Source of the DNA: a virus
Lineage: Duplodnaviria > Heunggongvirae > Uroviricota > Caudoviricetes
Virus record (IMG/VR): IMGVR_UViG_2802429228_000006
Reading direction: 5' to 3' (one strand)
Length of the DNA stretch: 47,939 nucleotides
Shown here: one piece after another, positions 2,265-47,242 of the stretch
Layout of the letters: each line of letters opens with the position of its first letter
Numbering within the stretch: position 1 is the stretch's first letter
Program-made: the position numbers and the translations under genes
The notes under the pieces: generated by a model
The model's input: the letters and a program-made list of their open reading frames with translations, nothing else
The model's database searches: none
What the model was told of the DNA's origin: nothing

Positions 2265-4598
2265 TCAGGTTGTTGCAGGGTCGTCACATTTTGGCAGCCA
2301 GTCGCCGTAGCTTTCCTCTTTCAGCGTCAGGTTGGTCTGTATCCCCTGTTTGGTATGGCGCTTCTCGTAATTCAGTCCGTATTCCTTCAGCATCACCGGC
2401 AGCCCCAGCCCGAACATTTTCAGACTGAGTACATTCCGGTAGCCGTTTGCCTCCATGTAGGCCAGATAGGCGTGATAGAGGTATTTACGGTAATTACGCG
2501 GGATGATACTGGCGTTCCCCATATACATGCCGCTGGTCTGCGGCAGGGTTTCCAGATAGCCGATAAAATCAAACGTCGGGTCGGCATCCCGTTTGATGTT
2601 CAGTGCCTCGTCTGAGTTCTGCTGGGACTGAAGCAGTGACCGGGCGAGCATCGGGTCGCTGAATTTCTGCATCAGGTGACGCACGATGACCGCCAGCTCG
2701 CGGGTGATTTTGTCCTTAAGCTGCGGGTCGCGCTCCTGCGGGGCTATCTGTTCCGGGAAGTGAATAATCACCCGCCGGCGTGACACGCCGCCGCTGCGGT
2801 CGGTGAAGCGCATCGGGTTATTGTTCACGGCCAGAATCACCGCCGGGATATGCGTGGAGTACGCATCCCGGTATTTCGGGTCCACGGACACCGCATCGCC
2901 GCCGGTGATGGCCTTGAGTCCGGCACCGTCGCCGCTCCATTTTTCCTGGTCCGGCAGGCGTATCAGTGAGAAGCCAGTTAACGCGGCACGTTCACGCGGG
3001 GATTCCAGCGTCTCGATGGTGGCCGACGTGGCGTTATCCTCCCCGGCCAGCAGGGTGGCGATTTCGGCCATGATACTTTTGCCGCTGCCGCCGGGACCGG
3101 TCACCTCCAGAAAGAGCTGCCAGTCGTAGCGGTTTGCCAGCACCATAAACAGTGCGGCCAGAATCACGTCGCGTTTTTCCGCACGGCCACCGGCGGCACG
3201 GTCAAGCCAGCGCCAGAACGCGGGGGCGTGGTTTTCCAGCGTTTCCCCTTCCACCGGCGGGGTGAAATCCACATCGCACAGGGTGCGCATCCAGTGTGAC
3301 GGACTGTGCGGGTGGAACGTGCCGTTCTGCGTGTCGAGCACGCCGTTACGAAAGCCAATCAGGCGGCGGGAGGGGGCTTCCTGCTGCGGAATAATCAGCT
3401 TCAGGGTGTCCACCACGGAGGCCACCTTCCCGGAGGAGAACGGCGCGCGCAGACGCTGAAACAGCCCGGCCACATCCCGGGCAAAGTCCTGTGGCGGCAG
3501 CACCTTCCAGACACCATTTTCATAGCGGGACAGAAGCTGGCCGTTGGCATCGACCGCGAGCGCCTCGCCGTAATGCTCATAGATACGCATGGCCTTTTCG
3601 CTGGTACTCATGGCGGAAAACTCCGCTTCGCTCATGGTGTCGAACGGGCTTTCAGCCGGTGGCCGGATGGCATCATAAATGGCCTTACGGGTGGCTTCCC
3701 CGCCGTACTGCGTGAAGGCATCATTCCAGTCACCGAAGACCGGCGGCAGGGCAACAACACCTTCACACGCATCTGCGGCTGCGGCGGCTTTTTTCTGGCC
3801 GTCACCGCTGAGGTCACGGTCTGCGGCAAGGACAATCTGACAGGCCGGATGCTTCTGCCGGGCAAGGCTGGCCAGAGAAAGGAGGTTCACGGAAGAAAGC
3901 GCCACCATCACCGTTTCACCGGTCAGGTGATGCACGGTAAGTGCGGTCGCGTATCCCTCCGCTATCCACAGACGTTTTCCGGCCTGATTCTGTCCTTCAA
4001 GGGTGTGACAGGTGCCCCTGACCTGTCCGCCTTTCAGGGTGCGCTTACGGCCGTCAGCACTGATTAACTGAAGGTTAACCAGTTCGCCGCTGTCGTCATA
4101 CAGTGGCACCACAAGGTCACCGGCACGCCAGCTCACGCCACCGGCTCTGTGTGTGCCGGTCAGCATCCGGCATTCCCGGCCGGGAAAGCCCTTGCGGGTC
4201 AGGTAGGCGTTACCGGTTCCGGGACGGGTTTTCGCCATCAGGGTTTGTGCCAGTGCGGCTGCGTTCTTCCGGGCAGCGTCTGTTTCAGCACCGGCGGCAG
4301 CCGTCACTGCCGGGTCAGCCGGGGGCAGGCTGCCGGTCACGGCAGCCACCTTTGCGGCCGCGTCGGACGGGGAAACACCAAACACCTTTTCAACCAGTTT
4401 CAGGCCGTCACCGGCACCACACTGATTGCAGTACCAGGTGCCGCGCCCCTCCCTGTCATCAAAACGGAAGCGGTCACTCCCGCCACAGACCGGACAGGGC
4501 TGATGACGGTTTTTCAGCACCTGAATCCCCAGCGCCGGGAGAATACGCGGCCAGTGGCCGAGCGCATGGCTGACGGTGGCGGTTACGTTCATTTTCAT
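2265..4598 (-). CDS. alpha: P4-type alpha protein (primase/helicase replication protein)
   Basis: 777-aa ORF with an N-terminal CxxC...CxxC zinc-binding primase-like region and P4 alpha-like sequence throughout; AAGGAG RBS upstream of the ATG. Confidence 0.9.
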   Translation of the reverse strand: MKMNVTATVSHALGHWPRILPALGIQVLKNRHQPCPVCGGSDRFRFDDREGRGTWYCNQCGAGDGLKLVEKVFGVSPSDAAAKVAAVTGSLPPADPAVTAAAGAETDAARKNAAALAQTLMAKTRPGTGNAYLTRKGFPGRECRMLTGTHRAGGVSWRAGDLVVPLYDDSGELVNLQLISADGRKRTLKGGQVRGTCHTLEGQNQAGKRLWIAEGYATALTVHHLTGETVMVALSSVNLLSLASLARQKHPACQIVLAADRDLSGDGQKKAAAAADACEGVVALPPVFGDWNDAFTQYGGEATRKAIYDAIRPPAESPFDTMSEAEFSAMSTSEKAMRIYEHYGEALAVDANGQLLSRYENGVWKVLPPQDFARDVAGLFQRLRAPFSSGKVASVVDTLKLIIPQQEAPSRRLIGFRNGVLDTQNGTFHPHSPSHWMRTLCDVDFTPPVEGETLENHAPAFWRWLDRAAGGRAEKRDVILAALFMVLANRYDWQLFLEVTGPGGSGKSIMAEIATLLAGEDNATSATIETLESPRERAALTGFSLIRLPDQEKWSGDGAGLKAITGGDAVSVDPKYRDAYSTHIPAVILAVNNNPMRFTDRSGGVSRRRVIIHFPEQIAPQERDPQLKDKITRELAVIVRHLMQKFSDPMLARSLLQSQQNSDEALNIKRDADPTFDFIGYLETLPQTSGMYMGNASIIPRNYRKYLYHAYLAYMEANGYRNVLSLKMFGLGLPVMLKEYGLNYEKRHTKQGIQTNLTLKEESYGDWLPKCDDPATT

Positions 4599-6002: not shown

Positions 6003-6255
6003 CCTCCTTGAAGTAACAGTTACAGCTACCACTGGAGTTCCTACGCTCATGGGTGGTAGCCCGGACGGGGGTAGGAATACCGGCCTTCAAGGAAACCGGC
6101 CAGCCCGAAGGCTGCCCCGCCCGGACCACCATTATCTGACAGAGGCTACGGTTTAAAAACCACAGCCAGAAAAACAGGTGTGCCGAAGCAACGACGTAAA
6201 AAAAGACGCATGGCGCGTCATATGTCGCCTTGAAGTAACTCGGGTTCCTACGCCC
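6003..6255 (-). promoter_or_regulatory. P4-type RNA immunity region: two similar sequences flanking a central complementary element (candidate CI-like RNA around 6070..6095)
   Basis: CCTTGAAGTAAC...GTTCCTACGC occurs at about 6005-6045 and 6228-6255. The central stretch ggtaggaataccggccttcaagg contains the reverse complements of both half-motifs (GTAGGAA, CTTCAAGG). Confidence 0.4.
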
Positions 6256-6347
6256 GGCTGCCGATTTTGCGACAGCGGAAAAACTATATCCGCAAATGCC
6301 GGAAAAAGGCAAGCCAGAAAAAGGGACTTTTTGCAGAACAGGCATCA

Positions 6348-9315: not shown

Positions 9316-11403
9316 ATGGGCAAAATGCAAAAAACTGAGGTCGAAGTATTTTCTGAGTTGGAGTCACTGTGTACATCTCATGGTTTTATTCATTGTTTAG
9401 CATTATTAAGCTGCATAAATAATATTACTATCTATGAAGACAAACTTAATTTTAAAGATGTGCAACATCTATACGAAAAAGAACGATTGATAAGAACCGA
9501 GATTTCTACGGTTGCAGGATTGTTGTTAAAGTCTGAAATTAATGTAAATTATCCCGGCGAAGAAGCACTGTTGAAATTATACGAAGATGTGAATGCATCT
9601 TTGAATATTTTACATAGTGCTATGCTTTTGACTGAGAAGAATGGCGATTACAACAATGCGATTATAAAAGAGAGTATATTTTATGCTGCTGAATCTGCTT
9701 ATGACTTTCAATATTTAGATATGGCGGAGGAAAAATACTCCTTAGATAATTCTTGGTTTTTAGAGAATATGGGGTTTACATGCATCGATATGGTGTCAGT
9801 AGGCCGGTGTATAGAGTCTATAATAGGGAGGCAAATTAATGATTTTTTAAATGGTGGTCAAGGGATTTTTAATGAGTGGCTATTAAATGCTTACGAGTTG
9901 TCAATTAATGAAATAGTTACTGAGACAGGTATTTCTTATGTGAAGGTAAGAACTATCATTGATTTGTTTTCGTCAGGTGGAAATTCAAATGAAACCTTTC
10001 AGTCTGTGAGTGACTTTAATATCTTTAATGCTAGACCCATAATCCGCACTGGAGATAGGTATTATTGTTTTTCAGCCTATTCATTGGCTCAGTCAATATA
10101 TGAAACACCATTTTTTTGGATGAATAATGACAAAAAATATAGACCTATATCTGCACAACATAGAGGACAATTTGTAGAAGATTATGTATATAGAAAAATG
10201 ACATCGATTTTTGGAATTGAGAATGTATTCAAAAATGTATATATAGTGAACTCTAATAATGAGACGCTAGGTGAAATAGATGTACTGGTATCTTTTTCTG
10301 ATTCGGTAATAATTTATCAGGCAAAATCTAAGAAGTTAACTATTGAAGCTAGAAAGGGAAATGGGAATGCTATACAAAAAGATTTTCAAGGTGCTATACA
10401 AGATGCTTATGATCAGGGGGTTTCTTGTGCTCAATTCATCGTATCTGGCGCAAGCCTAACTGATCAAAATTTCAACCGATTGAATCTCAACTCTTCAGTC
10501 TCTAGATGTTATATTGTTCCAATTATATCTGAGCATTATCCGTCTTTGAGTTTTCAGGTTCGTCAGTATTTGAATGTTAAAATAACAAATGAAATTTACC
10601 CGCCATTTATAATGGATGTTTTCCTTTTAGATGTTCTAACAGAGTTTTTAAATACGCCGCTATATTTTTTATCTTACATTGATCGTCGTTCGAAATATAA
10701 CATGAGAGTATTTTCTTCTCATGAATTGACAGTCTTTTCTTTGCATCTAAAACAGAATCTATGGATTGACAATGAATGTGATATGTTTATGTTGCATGAT
10801 GATATATGTGCTGATCTCGATATTGCGATGTTAGTCCGCAGGAAGGGGATCTCTGGTAAACATACTCCAAGTGGTATTCTAACACTCCATCAGGATGGCT
10901 TTATTAGAAAAATAATTAACTCATTGGAATCGGAAAATCATAAATTGGCGATGGATTTAGGTTTGCTTTTGCTTTCTTTGGATAGTGATGCTATTGAAAA
11001 CATCAATAAAATAGCTAATAAAACGATATTTTTATCTTCACTTGATAAGAAACACCATGATTTTTCAACTGTCATTGGGGATACGGGTATTACAGTTCAT
11101 TGTAATTACTATAAGAAAGATGTCGCGGGAAAAAAGTTGTATGAACATTGCATAAAAAGAAAATATATAACTAAATGTAAAAAATGGATTGGTATACATG
11201 TTAGACCAATAACATATGATATAAATTATGGAATTATGTTGGATTTTGAATGGGAATATTCTTCTGATATTGAAAGTATTATCACTCCTACTCCATTACA
11301 AAATACTTTGGTTAATGTTAAGGGAAATATGACTCAAGCAAAACGACCGGGTAGAAATGAACCATGTTTTTGTGGTAGCGGTAAAAAATGTTGTTTACGT
11401 TAA
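9316..11403 (+). CDS. Cargo protein (695 aa): putative PD-(D/E)xK/NERD-like nuclease with C-terminal SEC-C-type Cys motif; candidate anti-phage factor
   Basis: AT-rich ORF between cos and int. GEIDVLVSFSDSVIIYQAKSK fits a D..E.K nuclease core; the C-terminus CFCGSGKKCC fits a SEC-C metal-binding motif; no P-loop seen. Confidence 0.75.
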   Translation: MGKMQKTEVEVFSELESLCTSHGFIHCLALLSCINNITIYEDKLNFKDVQHLYEKERLIRTEISTVAGLLLKSEINVNYPGEEALLKLYEDVNASLNILHSAMLLTEKNGDYNNAIIKESIFYAAESAYDFQYLDMAEEKYSLDNSWFLENMGFTCIDMVSVGRCIESIIGRQINDFLNGGQGIFNEWLLNAYELSINEIVTETGISYVKVRTIIDLFSSGGNSNETFQSVSDFNIFNARPIIRTGDRYYCFSAYSLAQSIYETPFFWMNNDKKYRPISAQHRGQFVEDYVYRKMTSIFGIENVFKNVYIVNSNNETLGEIDVLVSFSDSVIIYQAKSKKLTIEARKGNGNAIQKDFQGAIQDAYDQGVSCAQFIVSGASLTDQNFNRLNLNSSVSRCYIVPIISEHYPSLSFQVRQYLNVKITNEIYPPFIMDVFLLDVLTEFLNTPLYFLSYIDRRSKYNMRVFSSHELTVFSLHLKQNLWIDNECDMFMLHDDICADLDIAMLVRRKGISGKHTPSGILTLHQDGFIRKIINSLESENHKLAMDLGLLLLSLDSDAIENINKIANKTIFLSSLDKKHHDFSTVIGDTGITVHCNYYKKDVAGKKLYEHCIKRKYITKCKKWIGIHVRPITYDINYGIMLDFEWEYSSDIESIITPTPLQNTLVNVKGNMTQAKRPGRNEPCFCGSGKKCCLR

Positions 11404-11430: not shown

Positions 11431-12624
11431 TTAGTTATTTTTTTTTACTTTGTTTCCCCACCATTCCATGAGTTCAATTCGTTGCTCTAAGTATGTAGAT
11501 CTATTGTATGCTCTCCGAACTTCATTTTTATCACTGTGAGCTAAAGCCGCTTCAATAACATCTGCATTGAAACCAGCTTCATTCATTGCAGTGCTTGCAA
11601 TAGAGCGAAGGCCATGAGCAACTAGTTTTCCGCCAAAACCAATGCGTTTTAAAGCTGCATTAGCAGTTTGGCTATTCATTGGCTGTTTAGGGTCATTTCT
11701 ACTTGGAAAAATATGTTCACGATGGGCACTAATAGGCTTCATTACTTCCAAAATATCTAAAGCCTGACGTGATAAAGGAACAATGTGTTCACGTTTGGCT
11801 TTCATCCGTTCAGGGGGAATAGTCCAGAGTTTTGTATCAAGATCGATCTCTGCCCAACAAGCACCAGAGGCTTCAGAAGGGCGTACAAGCGTCAAGAGTT
11901 GCCATTCAATGAGACAGCGAGTCGGAACAGATAGGTTTGACATAGCTAAAGAACGCATCAGCTTCGGCAATTCTTCTGGCCGCAATGTTGGCATGTTTTG
12001 CTTTTTTGGCTTCTCAAAGGCCATCCCAACCCCAGATGCTGGATTGGCATCAATCAGACCAGTGTTTACAGCGTAAATCATTATCTCGTTAATTCGCTGT
12101 ATCAGTCGACGTACAGTTTCAAGAGCCCCACGAGCTTTGATTGGCTCAAGAGCTTCGACTAGCGTCCGGGCTTTGATTTGCTGGACGGGAATCTCTCCAA
12201 TGGCTGGGAATATGTCTTTTTCCAGCGAACGCCATATATCTTTAGCGTAATCAGGGGAAACGCTTTTGCTTTTTATCTGAAACCAGTTGGTCGCAACAGT
12301 CGAAAAAATACTGTCTAGAGCTATCTGTTGTTGTTCTTCGATAAATTCAGCTTGAACTTGTGGGTCTATACCATTAGCCAACAAAGCAAGGTAATCCGCT
12401 CTTAACCGTCGAGCATCAGCAAGTGAAAGAGCGGGGAAAGCACCTATCCCCATCATTGTTCTTTTTTTTGTAGCTGGTCGTTGATAGCGAAATCGCCAAA
12501 GTTTCTTACCGCTTGTTTTCACTATCAGAAAGAGGCCTTCGCCATCATGCAACGTCAGATCCTTTTCTAATGCTTTAGCGCGCAGAACTTCTGTATTGGT
12601 TAGGGGGCGTGTTGTTCTTGCCAC
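11431..12624 (-). CDS. int: P4-type tyrosine integrase (IntA-like)
   Basis: 397-aa product with a P4/CP4-57 integrase-like sequence and a C-terminal catalytic region (HGLR..., ...AHSD...RAY). Adjacent to the att repeat. Confidence 0.9.
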   Translation of the reverse strand: MARTTRPLTNTEVLRAKALEKDLTLHDGEGLFLIVKTSGKKLWRFRYQRPATKKRTMMGIGAFPALSLADARRLRADYLALLANGIDPQVQAEFIEEQQQIALDSIFSTVATNWFQIKSKSVSPDYAKDIWRSLEKDIFPAIGEIPVQQIKARTLVEALEPIKARGALETVRRLIQRINEIMIYAVNTGLIDANPASGVGMAFEKPKKQNMPTLRPEELPKLMRSLAMSNLSVPTRCLIEWQLLTLVRPSEASGACWAEIDLDTKLWTIPPERMKAKREHIVPLSRQALDILEVMKPISAHREHIFPSRNDPKQPMNSQTANAALKRIGFGGKLVAHGLRSIASTAMNEAGFNADVIEAALAHSDKNEVRRAYNRSTYLEQRIELMEWWGNKVKKNN

Positions 12625-12969: not shown

Positions 12970-14193
12970 TTATTTTAAATATTCATACTTCATCATTTGA
13001 TGAATAAGGAGTTCAACTTTTCTAAAAGTGGTATTTTCATAATGTTCAACAAGGGATTCATCAAAGTCTTCAATCCATCCTTTTGCGGGATTATAGGTCG
13101 AAAAATTAAAATTATTTTTGTATAGATAGGGGGTGGCTTCTAGTGTACTAAACACAGTCCAGGAAACAGGGTTTGTAACTCTAAATATTTTTTTTAAAAC
13201 AGGACAGTGGGTATCATTGGTTTCAACTATGTTTTCTATTTTTGGGGGGATAATTACATTAATCCCAATATCGCTATCTTTTTGGTTTAATATCTTTGTT
13301 GATCGATACGATATCCCTGATATATTTTTGTTTCTGTCACTACTAATCCATTGCATTAATAGGTTTGGTATTATGTATTCTTTATTAAAACTTGCGTTTT
13401 CATTATCTTTTGTATAGTTACATGCAAGGACTAAAGGCCATGCAATCAACTTTGAAATTTTATCATTAATTTGATCCATGAAATTATCATTATTTAGATC
13501 GTAATCATCATCTGAACCTTGTTCGAATGAATACCAAAGATCTCCCGGTTTTGTACGAAGTGCAGATGTTAAATTGTACCCAAGATCTAAAATTCTTATA
13601 TTTGAATTTTCTTTATCGGATATGAAGGAAGATATGTAAAGTTTATCAAAGTCAGGTTTTCCCATTTCTTGCCAACATACAAATATTGATGTTCCAAGAT
13701 ATAAACATGGAAGACCGGATACAGAAAATCTTTGTGCGCTAACTAAATGTCTATTTTTAAATGGTATATGAAATAATTCTTCTCTTTGTTTTAGGATGCA
13801 CTCACTTTTCCTTACGCGAAATAAAGGGGTGTGTGGGTTGCATAATTTAGTTAGAGGAACAGTCATCTTATAAAGATGAGTATGCATTGATGACTTGGTA
13901 ATTGCCAAATCGAATTTTTTATAAGCTTCTTTAACATTTCCTATTAAAAATAGCTTAAGAGTTTCTATTATTTTATCAGATAAATATATTATTGATTTTG
14001 TGCGAATCTTTACTTGTTTAATTATCTCGTTGTCAGGATATTTATTTCTAATGGAGTCAATTAATTCTAAATAGCACTCGACTCTCTTAGAAAAGTCAGA
14101 AATTAGTTTTCCCTCGGCAATGAATGGGGGTTGCAATAGTTCATGTTTTTTTAGTTCTTCCGATATCTGTTCTAATTCGATAATGTTGCGCAT
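12970..14193 (-). CDS. RES-domain protein (407 aa), candidate NAD-targeting toxin / abortive-infection effector
   Basis: AT-rich ORF between att and int. LFRVR...QRFSVSGLPCLYLGTSIFVCWQE matches the RES signature (R...GRWN..G.P.LY......E). No adjacent partner gene. Confidence 0.6.
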   Translation of the reverse strand: MRNIIELEQISEELKKHELLQPPFIAEGKLISDFSKRVECYLELIDSIRNKYPDNEIIKQVKIRTKSIIYLSDKIIETLKLFLIGNVKEAYKKFDLAITKSSMHTHLYKMTVPLTKLCNPHTPLFRVRKSECILKQREELFHIPFKNRHLVSAQRFSVSGLPCLYLGTSIFVCWQEMGKPDFDKLYISSFISDKENSNIRILDLGYNLTSALRTKPGDLWYSFEQGSDDDYDLNNDNFMDQINDKISKLIAWPLVLACNYTKDNENASFNKEYIIPNLLMQWISSDRNKNISGISYRSTKILNQKDSDIGINVIIPPKIENIVETNDTHCPVLKKIFRVTNPVSWTVFSTLEATPYLYKNNFNFSTYNPAKGWIEDFDESLVEHYENTTFRKVELLIHQMMKYEYLK

Positions 14194-15219: not shown

Positions 15220-15852
15220 TTAGATACTCTTTATTACTTTGACTGCACGCCCAATAACTTCCACATCATCGGCAGAGCACTCGAAAGACGCTTCATCTTG
15301 ATTTACTACAATCTTATTGCCGGGAATCCGCATGATTTTTGCAATAATAATCATTCCATCAATATTGATAAGCCAGAATCCATTGCTGACTTGTTTAACT
15401 GATTTATCGATGAGATAACAATCAGTAGGGGTTTCTAAGAACATCGATTCTTCATAATCTGCAGGTAATATGCTGTGGTCTAGGAAAATCTCTTCATCAA
15501 TACTGAGTTGTCCATTTTCCAAGGTTCCTTTAGGAATAGATGGAGTTATGAGTTTGGATAACGGTTTAATTGCTTGTTTGTTCTCGTTATGAGATCTTTT
15601 CTCAGACTCGTATCCTTCTTTCATGCTTCCCTGTCCAGTGGCTAACCAAAGTAACGAAACACCGGTTTCTAGTGCACACTGAATTATCCAGTCAGCAGGA
15701 AAACTGTCACGTAACACTCTGTTTGCCATAGTACTTTTTGAGACATTCAGGTGCTCGCTTAATGCCTGCTTAGTTGTGAATCCATAAGCCTCAAGCAGCC
15801 TCTCAATAGCTGCCTTACCTCCCGTATCGGAACCCATTCTGATGTTTAACAT
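15220..15852 (-). CDS. cI: 186-type CI immunity repressor
   Basis: 210 aa with an N-terminal HTH; divergent from an Apl-like gene across an operator-bearing intergenic region; GGAG RBS. Confidence 0.7.
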   Translation of the reverse strand: MLNIRMGSDTGGKAAIERLLEAYGFTTKQALSEHLNVSKSTMANRVLRDSFPADWIIQCALETGVSLLWLATGQGSMKEGYESEKRSHNENKQAIKPLSKLITPSIPKGTLENGQLSIDEEIFLDHSILPADYEESMFLETPTDCYLIDKSVKQVSNGFWLINIDGMIIIAKIMRIPGNKIVVNQDEASFECSADDVEVIGRAVKVIKSI

Positions 15853-16248: not shown

Positions 16249-16758
16249 ATGTTTGATTACAAGATTTCCAAACATCCGCATTTCGATGAAGCCTGTAGGG
16301 CTTTTGCACTGCGTCACAACTTGGTGCAACTGGCAGAACGTGCAGGCATGAATGTGCAGATTCTGCGGAACAAGCTGAACCCAGCTCAGCCTCATTTATT
16401 AACCGCACCAGAAATCTGGCTGCTTACCGATCTGACTGAAGATTCAACGCTGGTAGATGGTTTTCTGGCACAGATTCATTGTCTGCCATGTGTACCGATT
16501 AATGAGGTGGCAAAAGAGAAACTGCCGCATTACGTCATGAGCGCAACTGCAGAGATCGGGCGTGTTGCAGCAGGTGCGGTATCTGGTGATGTAAAAACTA
16601 GTGCCGGTCGTCGTGATGCTATCAGCAGCATTAACTCTGTAACACGACTGATGGCGCTGGCGGCTGTTTCATTGCAGGCCCGTTTACAGGCTAATCCTGC
16701 GATGGTGAGTGCAGTTGATACCGTGACTGGCCTCGGTGCTTCATTCGGTTTGCTGTGA
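16249..16758 (+). CDS. cII: CII-like lysogeny establishment regulator (186 type)
   Basis: 169 aa, the size of 186 CII, in the matching position after apl. Confidence 0.65.
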
Positions 16759-18049: not shown

Positions 18050-18903
18050 GCACCATCCTGAAATGGGCGGGAAATAAAACCGCCATTATGTCCGAACTGA
18101 AAAAACATCTTCCTGCTGGCTCGCGACTGGTTGAACCTTTCGCGGGTTCCTGTGCTGTGATGATGGAGACGGATTACCCCAGCTATCTTGTTGCGGATAT
18201 TAATCCTGATTTAATCAACCTCTATAAAAAGGTTGCTGCTGATTGCGAGGCGTTTATATCTCGTGCCAGAGCTTTATTTGAGGAAGCAAACAGGGATGTG
18301 GCTTATTACAACATAAGGCAGGAGTTTAATTACTCCATTGAAATTACTGATTTCATGAAAGCGGTATATTTCCTGTATCTCAATCGTCATGGTTACCGTG
18401 GGTTATGTCGCTATAACAAGAGCGGGCATTTCAACATTCCGTACGGTAATTATAAAAATCCGTATTTCCCTGAAAAAGAAATTCGCGCATTTGCAGAGAA
18501 AGCCCAGCGGGCAACGTTTATATGCGCCAGCTTTGATGAAACGCTGGCGATGTTGAAGGCGGGGGATGTGGTGTATTGCGATCCGCCTTATGACGGTACG
18601 TTTTCCGACTATCACACTGACGGCTTCACTGAAGATGACCAGTATCACCTGGCATCCCTTCTTGAACATCGGTCATCAGAAGGACATCCGGTCATTGTTT
18701 CTAACAGTGACACATCCCTGATCCGTTCGCTGTATCGCAATTTTACTCACCACTACATCAAGGCAAAACGCAGCATCGGCGTAGCAGCTGGTGAGAGTAA
18801 ATCTGCAACAGAAATCATCGCTGTTTCCGGGACACGCTGCTGGGTGGGATTTGATTATTCGCGTGGCGTGGATAGTTCAGCCGTGTACGGAGTACGTGCA
18901 TGA
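18046..18903 (+). CDS. dam: DNA adenine methyltransferase (Dam-like, N6-MTase)
   Basis: KWAGNK...FAGS motif I and DPPY motif IV; ATG at 18046 with a GGAGG RBS. The track start at 17986 is an upstream extension overlapping the previous gene. Confidence 0.85.
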
Positions 18904-21314
18904 GTCATGCCGATATGAACAACTGCTGCGGCTTTAACGAGGCTGCCGCAGCGTTCTCATGGAACAGCCCGAAAAAGGCCATTAACCCTTATCTGGACCC
19001 GGCGGAAGTCGCGCCGGTTTCTGCGCTTTCAAACCTGATCACTCTGTACGCTGCCGATAACGAGCAGGAACAGCTGCGCCGCGAGGCACTGAGTGATCAG
19101 GCCTGGGAGCGTTATTTCTTTAATGAATCCCGTGATCCTGTCCAACGCGAAATGGAGCAGGATAAGCTCATTAGCCGGGCAAAGCTGGCGCATGAGCAGC
19201 AGCGTTTTAATCCAGACATGGTCATTCTGGCGGACGTTAACGCCCAGCCTTCCCATATCAGCAAGCCGCTGATGCAACGTATTGAATACTTCAGCAGCCT
19301 GGGCAGGCCAAAGGCTTATTCCCGCTATTTGCGTGAGACGATTAAGCCATGTCTGGAACGACTGGAGCATGTACGCGACTGTCAGCTATCCACTTCTTTT
19401 CGCTTTATGGCAAGCCATGAAGGGCTGGACGGCCTGCTGATCCTGCCTGAAATGAGTCAGGATCAGGTGAAGCGCCTGTCTACCCTTGTCGCCGCGCATA
19501 TGAGCATGTGCCTTGATGCAGCTTGTGGTGATTTGTATGCCACCGATGACATTAAGCCAGAAGAAATCCGCAAAACATGGGAAAAGGTGGCAGCGGAAAC
19601 CCTGCGTCTGGATGTTATCCCGCCTGCGTTTGAGCAACTCCGTCGGAAAAGAAACCGCCGTAAACCCGTGCCTTATGAACTCATTCCGGGTTCGCTGGCG
19701 CGTATGTTATGCGCCGACTGGTGGTATCGGAAATTATGGAAGATGCGTTGCGAATGGCGGGAAGAGCAGTTGCGTGCTGTTTGCCTGGTCAGCAAAAAAG
19801 CATCTCCCTATGTCAGCTATGAAGCCGTGATGCATAAACGTGAGCAGCGCCGTAAGTCGCTGGAGTTTTTCCGTTCTCATGAACTGGTGAACGAAGACGG
19901 CGACACGCTGGATATGGAAGACGTGGTAAACGCCAGCAGCAGCAACCCTGCGCATCGCCGCAATGAGATGATGGCCTGTGTTAAAGGTCTGGAGCTTATC
20001 GCGGAAATGCGCGGTGACTGCGCCGTTTTCTACACCATCACCTGTCCGTCACGTTTCCATTCCACGCTAAATAACGGCAGGCCCAACCCGACCTGGACAA
20101 ATGCGACGGTAAGACAAAGCAGTGATTATCTGGTCGGTATGTTTGCTGCATTTCGTAAGGCGATGCACAAAGCCGGATTACGCTGGTATGGCGTGCGGGT
20201 GGCTGAGCCGCATCATGACGGTACAGTTCACTGGCACCTGTTGTGTTTTATGCGCAAAAAAGATCGCCGCGCCATTACTGCTTTGTTGCGTAAGTTTGCC
20301 ATTCGTGAAGACCGCGAGGAGCTGGGTAATAACACGGAACCACGCTTTAAGTCTGAGCTGATAAACCCGCGCAAAGGTACGCCAACAAGCTACATCGCGA
20401 AATACATCAGTAAGAACATTGACGGGCGTGGTCTGGCTGGCGAGATCAGCAAGGAAACGGGTAAATCCCTGCGTGATAACGCTGAATACGTTAATGCCTG
20501 GGCGTCTCTGCATCGTGTTCAGCAATTCCGCTTCTTTGGCATTCCGGGGCGTCAGGCTTACCGTGAACTGCGATTGCTGGCTGGTCAGGCGGCAAGGCAA
20601 CAGGGGGACAAAAAAGCAGGTGCGCCGGTACTGGATAACCCGCGCCTTGATGCCATCCTAGCCGCTGCTGATGCTGGTTGTTTTGCCACCTACATCATGA
20701 AGCAGGGCGGCGTACTGGTTCCCCGCAAATATCACCTCATCAGAACCGCTTATGAAATCAACGAAGAGCCGACCGCCTATGGCGATCACGGTATTCGTAT
20801 TTATGGCATCTGGTCACCCATTGCAGAGGGCAAGATCTGCACTCATGCGGTGAAGTGGAAAATGGTTCGTAAGGCCGTTGACATTCAGGAGGCGGCAGCC
20901 GACCAGGGCGCTTGCGCCCCTTGGACTCGTGGCAATAACTGTCCCCTTGCTGAAAATTTGAACCAACAGGAGAAAGATAAATCAGCTGATGGGGACCCCA
21001 GAACGGACATTACCAGCATGGATGACAAGGAGTTGCACGATTACCTGCACAGTATGAGCAAAAAAGAGCGCCGGGAACTGGCAGCAAGGTTACGCCTGGT
21101 GAAACCGAAACGGCGTAAAGACTACAAACAGCGAATTACAGACCATCAGCGACTGCAGCTCGTGTATGAGCTGAAGTCCAGAGGATTTGATGGCAGCGAG
21201 AAAGAGGTCGATTTACTCCTTCGCGGAGGCAGTATTCCGTCAGGAGCAGGCCTGCGTATCTTCTATCGGAACCAGCGTTTGCAGGAAGATGATCAGTGGC
21301 GGAACCTGTATTAA
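18900..21314 (+). CDS. A: Replication initiation endonuclease (P2 gene A family, rolling-circle initiator)
   Basis: 804-aa product of the size and position of P2/186 gene A, following the early operon. Confidence 0.85.
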
Positions 21315-21408
21315 TTACGCGGGTTAACAATTCGTGCTCTTAATAATACCAGGCATATCAGGCTGATGAACGTAAAAAATCGTTTTACATCAGTAAGATT
21401 ATTATATA

Positions 21409-21424
21409 CTGTAAATATAAACAG
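21409..21424. promoter_or_regulatory. LexA (SOS) box, CTGT-N8-ACAG
   Basis: tactgtaaatataaacagtg lies about 45 bp upstream of the 21468 ATG. Confidence 0.6.
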
Positions 21425-21467
21425 TGGTTATGCATACAGCATTGCGTGTGGTGTCATAGGAGGAAAG

Positions 21468-21656
21468 ATGCAGGACTATTTTTTGGAGTCTTTGAAGCTC
21501 CAGCGCATTGATTTTTTTCTTAAGCTTGTAGCGGCTAGTGAGTGTAGTGATGAAGAGAAGGGGCTGGCTCTGCAGTGGGTTTCTGAATTGACTGATGAAC
21601 TCATGGCAAAAATCAGAACCCACGAATACAACCGCTCAATGGATGTCATCAGCTGA
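21468..21656 (+). CDS. Small SOS-controlled protein (62 aa), possible Tum-like antirepressor
   Basis: AGGAGG RBS and ATG directly downstream of the LexA box; function inferred from context only. Confidence 0.45.
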   Translation: MQDYFLESLKLQRIDFFLKLVAASECSDEEKGLALQWVSELTDELMAKIRTHEYNRSMDVIS

Positions 21657-21666
21657 GGTGACTTTT

Positions 21667-21900
21667 ATGCGCATTGAAATAATGATCGATAAAGAGCAGA
21701 AGATTAGCCAGTCTACCCTGGACGTCCTTGAATCCGAGCTTTACCGCAATCTGCGCCCCCTGTATCCCAAAACGGTAATTCGCATTCGCAAAGGTAGCTC
21801 TAACGGTGTGGAACTAACCGGACTGCAACTGGACGAAGAAAGAAAACAAGTGATGAAAATTATGCAGAAGGTGTGGGAAGACGACAGCTGGCTGCATTAA
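21667..21900 (+). CDS. DinI-family protein
   Basis: 77 aa starting MRIEIMIDKEQ... and ending ...WEDDSWLH, resembling the DinI fold; GAGGTG RBS. Co-transcribed with the upstream small ORF. Confidence 0.65.
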   Translation: MRIEIMIDKEQKISQSTLDVLESELYRNLRPLYPKTVIRIRKGSSNGVELTGLQLDEERKQVMKIMQKVWEDDSWLH

Positions 21901-22035
21901 GAAACGTTGCTGGCGTCTGAACTTGCTTCTGGCGTCAGCAAGGTTGAACAACGAGCCCTTGCGAGGCGTTAGCTCTGTAGTGCATGTCTATGCCGCATGA
22001 GATCGCATGATCGTTTGAGGATCGTTTTTGCTAAG

Positions 22036-22059
22036 GCCCGCCAGAACTGGCGGGCTTTT
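22036..22059 (+). terminator. Rho-independent terminator after the SOS operon
   Basis: gcccgccagaactggcgggc followed by tttt. Confidence 0.55.
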
Positions 22060-22104
22060 GCGTAGATCATGCAGGTGCATGAAAACCACTACATAAAGCG
22101 GGCA

Positions 22105-22123
22105 GGCGTGGCGGGGATACGAG
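22105..22123. other. Candidate cos site of the P2/186-like prophage
   Basis: ggcgtggcggggatacgag shares its first 13 nt with the 186 cohesive end as I recall it (GGCGTGGCGGGGA...). Confidence 0.35.
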
Positions 22124-22221
22124 CGCGCGTATTTGGTCGTTACTTAGCTTTTTTTTATCAATAGATTAAGCTAACTTAAGTCTTTTTAGGAAAAAATATT
22201 TTTTCGTGATGAGGTAGAAAG

Positions 22222-23631
22222 ATGTCTTTTCTTGATATAAAAAAAATGAGTAAAGAGAGGTTTAATGCTTTTGTTGATTGGACCAGAATGCCAAATACTG
22301 AACTTTTAGGCTATGAGTTTGAGTGGTACTGTAGTCCGAGAGAGTTCCTGCTAGGGGCACTATTATTGGATCAAATCGATGAAGATTATAGCGGTATTGT
22401 TTTAGCAAGAGACTTAAGTGGGAGATATAGATGTATTGACCTATTTACTAGTGTTTCAGAAATGAATTCTGCACGAGCAAAACTAAAGAAATTAATGCGG
22501 AAGCATACTAAATTAAACGTAAAAGTATTTCCACAAGGTGATGAAACTTATAAAGCAATGGATTTATTCACACCTATAGTTACACCAGATAAACTTCATC
22601 ATCATTTTTCATTATTTGGTAAATATGCGAACTGGTCGCCTGCAACAGGGATAATCAAGGAAATGATGAATCATTTTGAGGATGTCGACGGGAATTTTAT
22701 AGAGCAGTTTCAGACAACAGGTTTTGATGCCCGGCTATGGGAGTTATATCTTTTCGCATATTTACGAGAGGAACACTTTTGGCTAGATAGGCAGTTTAAT
22801 GCCCCTGATTATGTGGCACGTAAGTATGGTAATACTATTTGCATTGAAGCTGTAACGGTTAATCCAACAGGGAATGATATTAATCAATCATCTGAAATGC
22901 TATCTGAACCTAAAAGTAAGGAAGAATTGCTAGAGAAAATAGAGAATTATATGCCGATTAAATTTGGAAGTTCTCTCTATTCTAAACTGAAAAAGAAAAC
23001 TCGATACTGGGATCTAGAACATGTTAAGGGGAATCCTTTAATTTTCGCAATTGCTGATTTTCATGAACCAAACTCTATGATTTGGTCCCATAGTGCACTT
23101 TGGCAGTATCTTTATGGTATTCGCTATGAGCATGTTAAATCTGAAGATGGATGTTACAGTTTAGCAACTAAGAAAATTATATCGCATCAATTTGAGAAAA
23201 AGGAAATCCCTTCAGGCTTTTTCTTCTTGGATGAGTCTGAAAATATTTCGGCCGTCCTTAGTTCTAATAGTGGTACTATATCGAAGTTTAATCGGATGGG
23301 AAAACTGGCTGGTTTTGGAAGAAGTGACCTTAGATTATTTAGGAGTGGTTACTGCCATGATCATGACCCAGAGGCATTATATCCAGCAGCATTTAGTTTT
23401 GAAGTGAAAGAAGGCGATATTACAGAAACATGGGCAGAAGGTTTAAATATGTATCATAATCCTAATGCTAAATATCCTGTAGATCCTGATTTATTTCCTT
23501 CAATAGCACATCATTTTCTTGAAAATGGAGAGGTTAAAAGTATAGTGCCTGACTTTCATCCGTATACATCTATTACCATAAATGTCTTAACTCAAAATAA
23601 TAAAAAACAAAAAATCAGAGTAGATGAGTAA
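22222..23631 (+). CDS. Cargo protein (469 aa) of unrecognised family; candidate anti-phage factor
   Basis: AT-rich ORF in the variable region between gene A and portal gene Q; no P-loop, RT or obvious nuclease motif. Confidence 0.7.
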   Translation: MSFLDIKKMSKERFNAFVDWTRMPNTELLGYEFEWYCSPREFLLGALLLDQIDEDYSGIVLARDLSGRYRCIDLFTSVSEMNSARAKLKKLMRKHTKLNVKVFPQGDETYKAMDLFTPIVTPDKLHHHFSLFGKYANWSPATGIIKEMMNHFEDVDGNFIEQFQTTGFDARLWELYLFAYLREEHFWLDRQFNAPDYVARKYGNTICIEAVTVNPTGNDINQSSEMLSEPKSKEELLEKIENYMPIKFGSSLYSKLKKKTRYWDLEHVKGNPLIFAIADFHEPNSMIWSHSALWQYLYGIRYEHVKSEDGCYSLATKKIISHQFEKKEIPSGFFFLDESENISAVLSSNSGTISKFNRMGKLAGFGRSDLRLFRSGYCHDHDPEALYPAAFSFEVKEGDITETWAEGLNMYHNPNAKYPVDPDLFPSIAHHFLENGEVKSIVPDFHPYTSITINVLTQNNKKQKIRVDE

Positions 23632-32496: not shown

Positions 32497-34197
32497 TTAT
32501 TCAAGGTGATTTGAAAGAGTAATTAATGGCTCAATCGGTTGGAACGCTTTTAAGGATGTTAATATGTTTTTAACTTCCTTTGATACGATAGATAACGGGT
32601 TGTCTGTTACAGATAAGTAGGTGGTTAAATCTTGACCTGAAACACGGATAACATGTGGTAATATCGCAGTTATAACTGGTGTCCAAAGGTCGATTAAATC
32701 ATCCAGAGAGTTATTTTTAGATAATGCTGTATCATATTTATATTTTATTTTCTTCTTGTTCAAAGGTTTATCTGTTAATTCTTCAAGTATTTCTCCGATG
32801 ACGGATATTAAAAAGAATCGAGACTTTAAATTTTGGAGGAATAATAAGTTATCCTCATCTACTTTAATTTTATTCTCTTTTGCACGGATTTGAGATTTTA
32901 CTTTTTCTATAGCTTTTGAAATAGTGTAAGCACATAAAATATGCTGGGCTTTCGAATCATGAAAGGCATTGTCATAGGCTGATTTTGTATCGAAAACGTA
33001 GTTTTTACCTCTATTGGCGCTAACATAATCCCCATGTAACGCTATCAGCGGTTGAGCAACAGACTCAATGCCAAATAAAGAACCAGTATTTTCGAAGCCG
33101 CGTTTCAGTGAATATGTATAACCAAGAGTGGAAAATTCTTCTGCCACCTGTTTTTGTTCTGTGCTGTTAGAGTAGTGATCCCAGGTTGTAATATGATTCT
33201 GAGTATTATTATACTGGACTATTTTTTTTACTTTGTCCGCATCATTACATTCAATAACCTTACAAAGGACTTTTAGGCCATCTAATTTTTGTATATCTTG
33301 AACTGAACCAATAGAACCAGTGGTTTGAGCTCCATTTATGATTGAAACTCCTTCCAACAACCCTTTTTCTTTGTTGAATTTTGTTGTTAGGATTGATACA
33401 CCATTGTTAAAGACAAAGAAGTCTTTTGGGGATGTTTCTGCGGTATTCTTAATTGATGAGTTTATTTTTCTTCTCTTATTTAATCCCATGAACCCCCTAT
33501 AATTAGCAGAAAATAATTCTGCTCCATAATTTTTGTATAAATAATTTAGCCAAGTGCCGTTTGCAAAGCCAACATGTGAAGTCCAGCCATCACCTTGTAC
33601 AGAATTTATAAGTTCGCCATTGAACTTTATATTGTCAGTCACAACAATTTGTTGTGATAGCGCAATATACAATTTTTCAAGACTATTAACACCAAGTTCT
33701 CTGTAAGTTACCTCAATTTCTTTGTCTGCAAATCTACCTGCTAGATAGTCACGACAAGTTTCAAGCTCAGTTTTAACCTGCTCAGATTCGGCACAATTAT
33801 GGATATATAATAATTCAACAGCTTCAATTTCGTTATCATCAATTAATTTTCTAACCTCAGAAATTTTTGCTCTTAATTTTGCATTTGGAGACTCTCCTGA
33901 GCCTGCCATAATCCACGCTAAAGCAGTGTTTAAGTCAGAAGCTTTATTTGCAGGCGCAACTATTTTAAGTGCTTGCTGATTGCAGTAGTAACCCTGAGCA
34001 ATAAATAACGTTGAATTAATTACGGTAATGAAGTCTATTTTCTTATCGTTTCCACCATCAGTAAGTCCATCAGATGCTAGCTTATCAAAATCGGATTCAT
34101 CTAAGTAAAGACCTAATGACCATAAAAGATGTGCGTTACTAGTCCCGTACTTTTCTAACAGGGAAGTTTTATTTTGCAGTTGTCTTAAGTGTTCCAT
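32497..34197 (-). CDS. AIPR-type (abortive infection phage resistance) protein, 566 aa
   Basis: AT-rich ORF antisense to the tail genes; the conserved block ...GVSIINGAQTTGS... resembles the AIPR family. Confidence 0.65.
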   Translation of the reverse strand: MEHLRQLQNKTSLLEKYGTSNAHLLWSLGLYLDESDFDKLASDGLTDGGNDKKIDFITVINSTLFIAQGYYCNQQALKIVAPANKASDLNTALAWIMAGSGESPNAKLRAKISEVRKLIDDNEIEAVELLYIHNCAESEQVKTELETCRDYLAGRFADKEIEVTYRELGVNSLEKLYIALSQQIVVTDNIKFNGELINSVQGDGWTSHVGFANGTWLNYLYKNYGAELFSANYRGFMGLNKRRKINSSIKNTAETSPKDFFVFNNGVSILTTKFNKEKGLLEGVSIINGAQTTGSIGSVQDIQKLDGLKVLCKVIECNDADKVKKIVQYNNTQNHITTWDHYSNSTEQKQVAEEFSTLGYTYSLKRGFENTGSLFGIESVAQPLIALHGDYVSANRGKNYVFDTKSAYDNAFHDSKAQHILCAYTISKAIEKVKSQIRAKENKIKVDEDNLLFLQNLKSRFFLISVIGEILEELTDKPLNKKKIKYKYDTALSKNNSLDDLIDLWTPVITAILPHVIRVSGQDLTTYLSVTDNPLSIVSKEVKNILTSLKAFQPIEPLITLSNHLE

Positions 34198-46878: not shown

Positions 46879-47242
46879 TGGTGGAGCTGGCGGGAGTTGA
46901 ACCCGCGTCCGAAATTCCTACATCCTCGGTACTACATGCTTAGTCAGTCTTTACATTCGCTTGCCAGCTGCGGACAGACACGCCACTAACAAACTAGCCT
47001 GATTAAGTTTTAACGCTTCAACCCCAGGCAAGGCTTCCACGCGATCTCTTTTGGGTTTGACCTCTCTTGATCCCCGTCCTAAGAGCGGAGGCTAGGGAGA
47101 GAGGGCTCTAAGCAGGTTATTAAGCTGCTAAAGCGTAGTTTTCGTCGTTTGCGACTATTTTTTGCGGCTTTTTACGAGGCCAACCGCCCCTCGGCATGCA
47201 CCTTGGGTTTCGCAAATCCCGTCGAATCCAGAATCAGCCCCA
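46879..47242 (-). ncRNA. ssrA: tmRNA (SsrA, 10Sa RNA)
   Basis: The reverse complement reads GGGGCTGATTCTGGATTCGACGGGATTTGCG...GCAAACGACGAAAACTACGCTTTAGCAGCT...GGTTCAACTCCCGCCAGCTCCACCA, including the ANDENYALAA tag-coding region. Ends may be off by 1 nt. Confidence 0.95.

Follow-up and report, generated by a model that had tools for sequence, protein, structure and literature searches.

A probable SOS-induction operon of the split tum type in a Fels-2-like prophage

Introduction

LexA-controlled antirepressor operons explain how Fels-2-like prophages, whose repressor lacks a RecA-cleavable-type domain, sense DNA damage, and this mechanism is already established. In phage 186, the promoter p95 of the p95-tum-orf97 operon is annotated (U32222) with a -35 TTCACA, a spacer of 18 bp and a -10 TACTGT, which is also the left arm of a LexA site. 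According to the 186 record, full-length Tum "inhibits CI DNA binding", whereas N-terminally truncated products only "modulate SOS induction". In Fels-2 and PSP3, a stop codon divides tum in two, with the antirepressor gene upstream and a homologue of DinI downstream, and the antirepressor activity of PSP3 was found in the upstream gene (PMC3121763). Bunny et al. (2002) is cited as the primary paper on Fels-2 tum in a passage of Lemire et al. (2011). Operons of the Gifsy type (dinI-gfoA/gftA) are also LexA-repressed and combine a DinI homologue with a small antirepressor directed against a non-cleavable repressor (PMC3121763).

The closest experiments were carried out on DuoHS, a prophage of E. 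coli HS. In the Phollow study (Nat Microbiol 2025, PMC12055606), an in-frame deletion of tum (ECHS_RS04495) in DuoHS abolished induction by mitomycin C; in this deletion, the start codon of the 62-aa gene was joined in-frame to the stop codon. The lexA(Ind-) allele likewise abolished mitomycin C induction of DuoHS (PMC12055606). In the RefSeq annotation of E. coli HS, ECHS_RS04495 is a 189-nt "hypothetical protein" gene between the replication endonuclease gene and a DinI-like gene.

Here, an operon of this kind is described in a window of 47,939 nucleotides, the whole stretch of DNA that was analysed. Very probably, it mediates SOS induction of a Fels-2-like prophage (186-type, Peduoviridae) and has the split tumA/tumB form, with a 62-aa protein that would inactivate the CI repressor.

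Results and Discussion

Position and layout of the operon

The window carries a P2/186-type prophage, in which the P2-type gene set is complete by synteny with DuoHS and the late genes follow the same order as in that prophage. The operon lies directly downstream of replication gene A and is transcribed in the same direction, and an operon after gene A is also found in 186, PSP3, Fels-2 and DuoHS. The genes concerned are:

18900..21314, + strand: replication gene A (gpA), Pfam Phage_GPA, E 4e-128
21458..21463, + strand: Shine-Dalgarno sequence AGGAGG of the 62-aa ORF, seen in the sequence and kept in relatives
21468..21656, + strand: tumA-like gene for a 62-aa predicted antirepressor, homologue of the N-terminal half of 186 Tum
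21667..21900, + strand: tumB, DinI-like gene of 77 aa, Pfam DinI PF06183

Going from gene A to the next gene, the elements follow one another as TTTACA, 17 bp, TACTGTAAATATAAACAGTG, AGGAGG, the 62-codon ORF and the 77-codon DinI-like ORF. The GAGG of the latter (21655..21658) overlaps the stop codon of the 62-aa ORF. In the initial annotation, a near-consensus SOS box had been placed ahead of a 62-aa ORF with a strong ribosome-binding site and of a DinI-family gene. All these elements are present, with the box at 17/20 and AGGAGG where a strong site was claimed. The ORFs were also described correctly, except that their start coordinates were each off by one base (the ATG of the 62-aa ORF is at 21468, not 21469). 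The feature is real, and the earlier description and interpretation of the operon are correct.

A megablast search with 21300..22100 retrieved Fels-2-like Peduoviridae of Escherichia, Klebsiella and Salmonella that are 92-99% identical. Matches were found in 1144 of 5426 complete E. coli genomes, and thus relatives occur in about one fifth of them.

The 62-aa gene and its relation to Tum

Comparison of both ORFs with 7 relatives showed nucleotide differences mostly at third codon positions. Against SopEPhi, substitutions at codon positions 1/2/3 amount to 8/4/20 for the 62-aa ORF (20 of 32 at the third position) and to 8/5/23 for the DinI-like ORF. On this pattern of substitutions, the 62-aa gene is under purifying selection.

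Other readings of the same DNA were rejected. A 96-aa frame from the ATG at 21366 crosses the promoter and the operator and is missing in diverse relatives, which start at MQD. Two ORFs in antisense, 21402..21623 and 21476..21649, conflict with the substitutions, whose pattern is that of the + frame.

No family for the 62-aa ORF was found in Pfam or PADLOC, and in PHROGs it is placed in phrog_698, "unknown function". An exhaustive search of 1.8 billion representative proteins gave 66 relatives at E <=0.001, of which those that look intact are mostly 55-75 aa long. Among 33 aligned sequences, D3, E7, R13, I14, C26, A34, W37, E40, L41 and L45 are at least 90% conserved, W37 being invariant. The AlphaFold2 model (pLDDT 86.5) is a helical hairpin with helices at 2-23 and 28-61, and the conserved Cys sits in the turn. 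A PDB sequence search with the family profile gave no match. Foldseek of the model against the PDB returned only generic helical hairpins, all with E >=1, and these therefore carry no functional information on the 62-aa protein.

The initial annotation had proposed that the 62-aa ORF may be a LexA-controlled antirepressor like Tum, linking SOS to the CI at 15220..15852, that the DinI-like protein could modulate RecA, and that alignment with 186 Tum would be a check. BLASTP showed no similarity of the 62-aa ORF to 186 Tum or to PSP3 TumA, nor of TumA to Tum. Since pairwise BLASTP is uninformative here, profiles were needed for the link to Tum. The window protein and 30 diverse relatives were combined into a family HMM, which matched residues 5-48 of 186 Tum with 36 bits (E 5.6e-13, two targets), and hhalign of the family against 186 Tum aligned residues 3-44 of the two proteins with 95% probability (E 3.9e-8). 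The motif E..(L/I)(Q/E)R(I/V)(D/E)(L/M)..RL.A...C...D(K/R)E(L/I)A(L/I)..(I/V)(A/S)E(L/I) is common to the family and Tum. PSP3 TumA is matched only weakly by the family profile (4 bits; hhalign 8.8%). Since the 186 record gives CI inhibition to full-length Tum and only modulation to the truncated products, it assigns the antirepressor function to the part of Tum matched by the 62-aa ORF.

The antirepressor reading is strengthened by DuoHS. The product of ECHS_RS04495 is identical to the 62-aa protein of the window at 61 of 62 residues, and the operator is nearly the same. With this orthologue, the results of the DuoHS deletion and of lexA(Ind-) show that the proposal of a Tum-like antirepressor was right and that it passed the gene-level tests there. 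Support for it comes both from the profile match to the N-terminal half of Tum and from the requirement for the DuoHS gene in induction.

The CI repressor as presumed target

The repressor region contains the following genes:

15220..15852, - strand: 186-type CI immunity repressor, presumed target of the antirepressor, Pfam Phage_CI_repr and Phage_CI_C
16249..16758: CII gene

No match to Peptidase_S24, the autocleavage-type domain, was found in Pfam for this CI. Its identity is 32% to the CI of 186, 41% to that of DuoHS, 60% to that of Fels-2 and 96% to that of Salmonella phage RE2010. As the CI of the window is only 41% identical to that of DuoHS, it is by inference that the DuoHS experiment carries over, and we infer in this way that the 62-aa protein acts on this particular CI.

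The distance between these repressors also favours the alternative that fares best, that LexA controls the module but that the resident CI is not its target, the module being a mosaic leftover or a general SOS modulator. In that case, the prophage would be induced by some other route or would fail to be induced. The CI of the window differs from the one in DuoHS, where the experiment was done, and also from that of Fels-2. Furthermore, phages in which the N-terminal Tum protein (Tum-N) is 98-100% identical to that of the window carry CIs that are only 40-96% identical overall, and the pairing could be non-specific. On the other side, the variation is unevenly distributed along CI: in phages with near-identical Tum-N, the N-terminal HTH domain is 67-73% identical and the C-terminal domain 27-54%. 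The N-terminal domain thus keeps 67-73% identity wherever Tum-N is at least 98% identical, compared with 40% between the N-terminal domains of 186 CI and the window CI. In addition, the same pair of CI (96%) and Tum (98%) is found in the deposited Salmonella phages RE2010 and SE479_1PHIH2, the 62-aa gene is under purifying selection, and the P2-type gene set of the prophage is complete. A module without action on CI is accordingly considered improbable, and inactivation of CI by the 62-aa protein is retained as the preferred reading.

The antirepressor is thus much better conserved than its presumed target, and the pattern of CI conservation fits an action of Tum on the N-terminal domain of CI. 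This is offered only as a lead from sequence comparison, as conservation of operator recognition could by itself give such a pattern.

A CI ORF with two tandem copies of the N-terminal HTH and one C-terminal domain was observed in Klebsiella phage ST11-OXA48phi15.3 (MK433580.1 32448..33326). The Tum-N of this phage is 100% identical to that of the window.

The DinI-like gene

Membership of the downstream gene in the DinI family, as claimed in the initial annotation, was borne out by Pfam: PF06183 matches with E 4.9e-22 and 78.5 bits, against a cut-off of 24.2, over profile positions 1-63 of 63. The protein shares 40% identity with residues 71-145 of 186 Tum (E 2e-23) and 77% with PSP3 TumB, and it aligns with E. 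coli DinI (PDB 1GHH/7YWA) at E 9.6e-6 over residues 1-75. The likeness to E. coli DinI is a full-length family likeness that includes the C-terminal acidic W-E-D segment; the protein differs from the host DinI in its low identity (29 bits), in being phage-borne and in being co-transcribed with an antirepressor gene. By homology, the window carries both halves of 186 Tum as separate genes.

A role at RecA is drawn from the family membership and from the 186 annotation; on these grounds, the DinI-like protein is most likely a RecA-filament binder that adjusts how strong or how long-lasting the SOS signal is. It could alternatively be thought that this protein is what triggers induction, the 62-aa ORF being a leader or an accessory gene. 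Several phage records do name the DinI-like gene "SOS operon TUM protein". The two genes are also close, with the ribosome-binding site over the upstream stop codon, and deletion of the upstream gene could lower expression of the DinI-like one. Nevertheless, the DuoHS deletion of the 62-aa gene was in-frame, and the 186 products that contain the DinI-like part only are annotated as modulators, not as CI inhibitors. The PSP3 activity lies in the upstream gene, and it is the 62-aa ORF that is homologous to the N-terminal half of Tum. Finally, ESSI-2-type phages lack a DinI gene yet retain a LexA box with the small gene, and the small gene is therefore a self-sufficient unit. Induction through the DinI-like protein is thus very unlikely; this protein is not the inducer, and the antirepressor role stays with the 62-aa protein.

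Promoter and LexA operator

The control region upstream of the 62-aa gene comprises:

21384..21389, + strand: TTTACA, probable -35 of the tum promoter by analogy with 186 p95, 17 bp before TACTGT
21407..21426, + strand: LexA (SOS) box 1, TACTGTAAATATAAACAGTG, 17/20 to the LexA consensus TACTGTATATATATACAGTA
21422..21441, + strand: overlapping SOS box 2, CAGTGGTTATGCATACAGCA, at an offset of 15 nt from box 1 and with an overlap of 5 nt

The core of the SOS box, CTGTAAATATAAACAG, spans 21409..21424. Sites were scored by mismatch counts and shuffles rather than by the heterology index. Box 1 is the sole site with no more than 3 mismatches to the LexA consensus in the 47.9-kb window, where the runner-up 20-mers on either strand reach 13/20, and none of 100 dinucleotide-preserving shuffles contained a 17/20 site. 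An equivalent box was present at the same place in 12 of the 12 phages compared (the window, DuoHS, Fels-2, SopEPhi, SEN8, Yersinia MLG42, two Klebsiella phages, two ESSI-2-type phages, 186 and PSP3), with the CTGT and ACAG arms kept and the spacers variable. In the GenBank record of 186, the site homologous to box 1 is annotated as the LexA operator of p95. Direct binding of LexA at box 1 would be expected from these features. A chance match in AT-rich intergenic DNA, leaving the operon outside LexA control, can be practically dismissed. The region is indeed AT-rich and the looser pattern CTGT-N8-ACAG occurs 2 times in the window versus 0.6 expected, but the shuffles, the arms kept around varying spacers, the operator annotated in 186 and the block of DuoHS induction by lexA(Ind-) all speak against it.

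TACTGT, the first 6 nt of box 1, is the probable -10. Since it matches TATAAT at only 3 of 6 positions, the tum promoter was not called by a generic sigma-70 consensus scan, and it was therefore assigned by analogy with 186. GTTTTACA is kept across the Fels-2-type phages. By this analogy, the layout of promoter and LexA operator is probably the same as that of 186 p95.

A second SOS box shared with colicin operators

Box 2 of the window matches the consensus at 13/20, equal to 11 unrelated sites of the window, which is chance level if the box is taken alone. At the same offset, the other Fels-2-type phages compared have 14-16/20 (7 of 7). The offset of 15 nt is identical in all 8 Fels-2-type sequences, among which box 2 of the window is the weakest. 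By comparison, the same offset in the single-box phages 186, PSP3 and ESSI-2 yields 5-8/20.

A 47-nt probe of the Fels-2 operator found matches in 1206 plasmid records. On Col plasmids, a near-identical 35-nt double-box unit lies upstream of colicin and bacteriocin genes; one example, ...CTGTATATAAAACCAGTGGTTATATGTACAGTA, is found ahead of the gene for a tRNase bacteriocin, and another, ...CAGTGGTTATATATACAGTA, ahead of that for a pore-forming colicin. Fels-2 shares an identical box 2 with a plasmid that encodes a tRNase bacteriocin, as SopEPhi does with one that encodes a pore-forming colicin. As in the Col plasmid operators, there are two LexA boxes with a 15-nt offset that share CAGTG, and register and sequence both match. 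In the colicin literature, the overlapping double box has been linked to binding of two LexA dimers and to very tight repression (PMC2994835). The arrangement is not the same in all respects: the Col plasmid boxes lie downstream of a separate TTGACA/-10 promoter, whereas box 1 of the window overlaps the -10; box 2 of the window has extra mismatches (13/20); and the genes under control are unrelated.

On sequence grounds, the operator of the Fels-2 group is a colicin-type double SOS operator, with a degenerate candidate box 2 (13/20) in the window. Phages and plasmids may have obtained the 35-nt unit from a common source or may have converged on a single optimal LexA site for two dimers.

The end of the operon

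Two folded structures were placed downstream of the DinI-like gene by RNA folding:

21903..21945, + strand: stem-loop after the DinI-like stop codon, with no U tract
22033..22062, + strand: intrinsic terminator, a GC-rich stem of 11 bp followed by UUUU

The terminator was not listed by a terminator pattern scan and was placed by folding; it is the probable end of the SOS operon. The block 21985..22137 is kept in phage 813R9 and, behind the orf97-like gene, in Fels-2, with divergence beyond ~22138. No orf97 homologue was found in the window, and no RNA family of Rfam over 21300..22220.

The stem-loop at 21903..21945 is strong (11 + 3 bp with two G-U pairs) and common to phage 813R9. It sits where 186 has the partial terminator t95a, and other sequence takes its place in Fels-2 and DuoHS. 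It might be a transcript stabiliser or a remnant of a lost orf97 region.

Proposed mechanism

In the lysogen, host LexA would occupy the operator at 21407..21441 and block the promoter, because box 1 covers the -10. Upon DNA damage, active RecA would bring about the self-cleavage of LexA, and the operon would be transcribed. The 62-aa protein would then bind the 186-type CI (15220..15852), which would leave its operators; the lytic promoter pR could then fire and the prophage be induced. Meanwhile, the co-transcribed DinI-like protein would tune the SOS signal via RecA filaments, and the SOS transcript would end at the terminator at 22033..22062.

Modest leads on induction thresholds and on prophage cross-talk in polylysogens come from the double operator and from the observation that one antirepressor goes with many CIs. 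In a broader and rather doubtful proposal, a single near-invariant antirepressor might serve many heteroimmune Fels-2-like prophages through the N-terminal domain of CI, so that co-resident prophages might be cross-induced, and the colicin-type operator might set a high SOS threshold.

The practical value of the assignment is in annotation. RefSeq and most phage records label the true antirepressor gene "hypothetical", and a few call it "levan regulatory domain protein". It thus has no functional name in RefSeq, PHROGs (phrog_698) and Pfam, and the name "Tum" is sometimes put on the DinI-like gene.

Other elements of the window

Directly after the SOS operon, an AT-rich ORF of 469 aa (22222..23631, + strand) matches the anti-phage defence protein PD-T7-1 of PADLOC with E 1.3e-196; no Pfam family was found for it. 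It occupies a variable cargo slot between the terminator of the tum operon and the portal gene Q, in which relatives diverge from ~22138. On the opposite strand within the late-gene block, an ORF of 566 aa (32497..34197, - strand) matches AbiU (PADLOC, E 1.7e-24) and Pfam AIPR. At the equivalent place DuoHS lacks a gene, and this ORF is probably a second defence cargo insertion.

A second mobile element adjoins the prophage at 1..~12700, with these features:

2265..4598: P4-type primase-helicase
6049..6136: C4 antisense RNA
6199..6276: isrK RNA
11431..12624: tyrosine integrase

It looks like a P4-like satellite in tandem with a potential P2-type helper. Two unannotated ORFs, 9316..11403 (695 aa) and 12970..14193 (407 aa), matched nothing in Pfam or PADLOC. 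At the other side, a tmRNA gene (ssrA, 46879..47241, - strand) lies just past the ogr/D end of the prophage and may mark its integration site.

Comparison with known systems

The operon resembles that of 186 in its position after gene A, in the LexA box over a TACTGT -10 and in the 186-type CI. It differs in that 186 Tum is one polypeptide of 146 aa with internal starts, whereas in the window a stop codon and a second ribosome-binding site give two genes. Furthermore, 186 has a single SOS box and orf97, while the window has two overlapping boxes and lacks orf97. The Gifsy-type operons are further removed, since dinI comes first, the phages are lambdoid and the repressor belongs to another family.

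Split tum pairs are found in Fels-2 (STM2728 and STM2726.1), DuoHS (ECHS_RS04495 and ECHS_RS04500) and PSP3 (tumA and tumB). PSP3 has one SOS box, and its TumA can barely be aligned with the 62-aa protein. In Fels-2 and DuoHS, by contrast, the small protein is 98% identical to that of the window, the DinI-like protein differs by 1 residue and the SOS operator is double, as in the window. After the DinI-like gene, Fels-2 has an orf97-like gene and DuoHS another gene, and the window has neither. The split-tum SOS operon is already known as a system, and a near-identical orthologue of the 62-aa gene described here has been tested experimentally.
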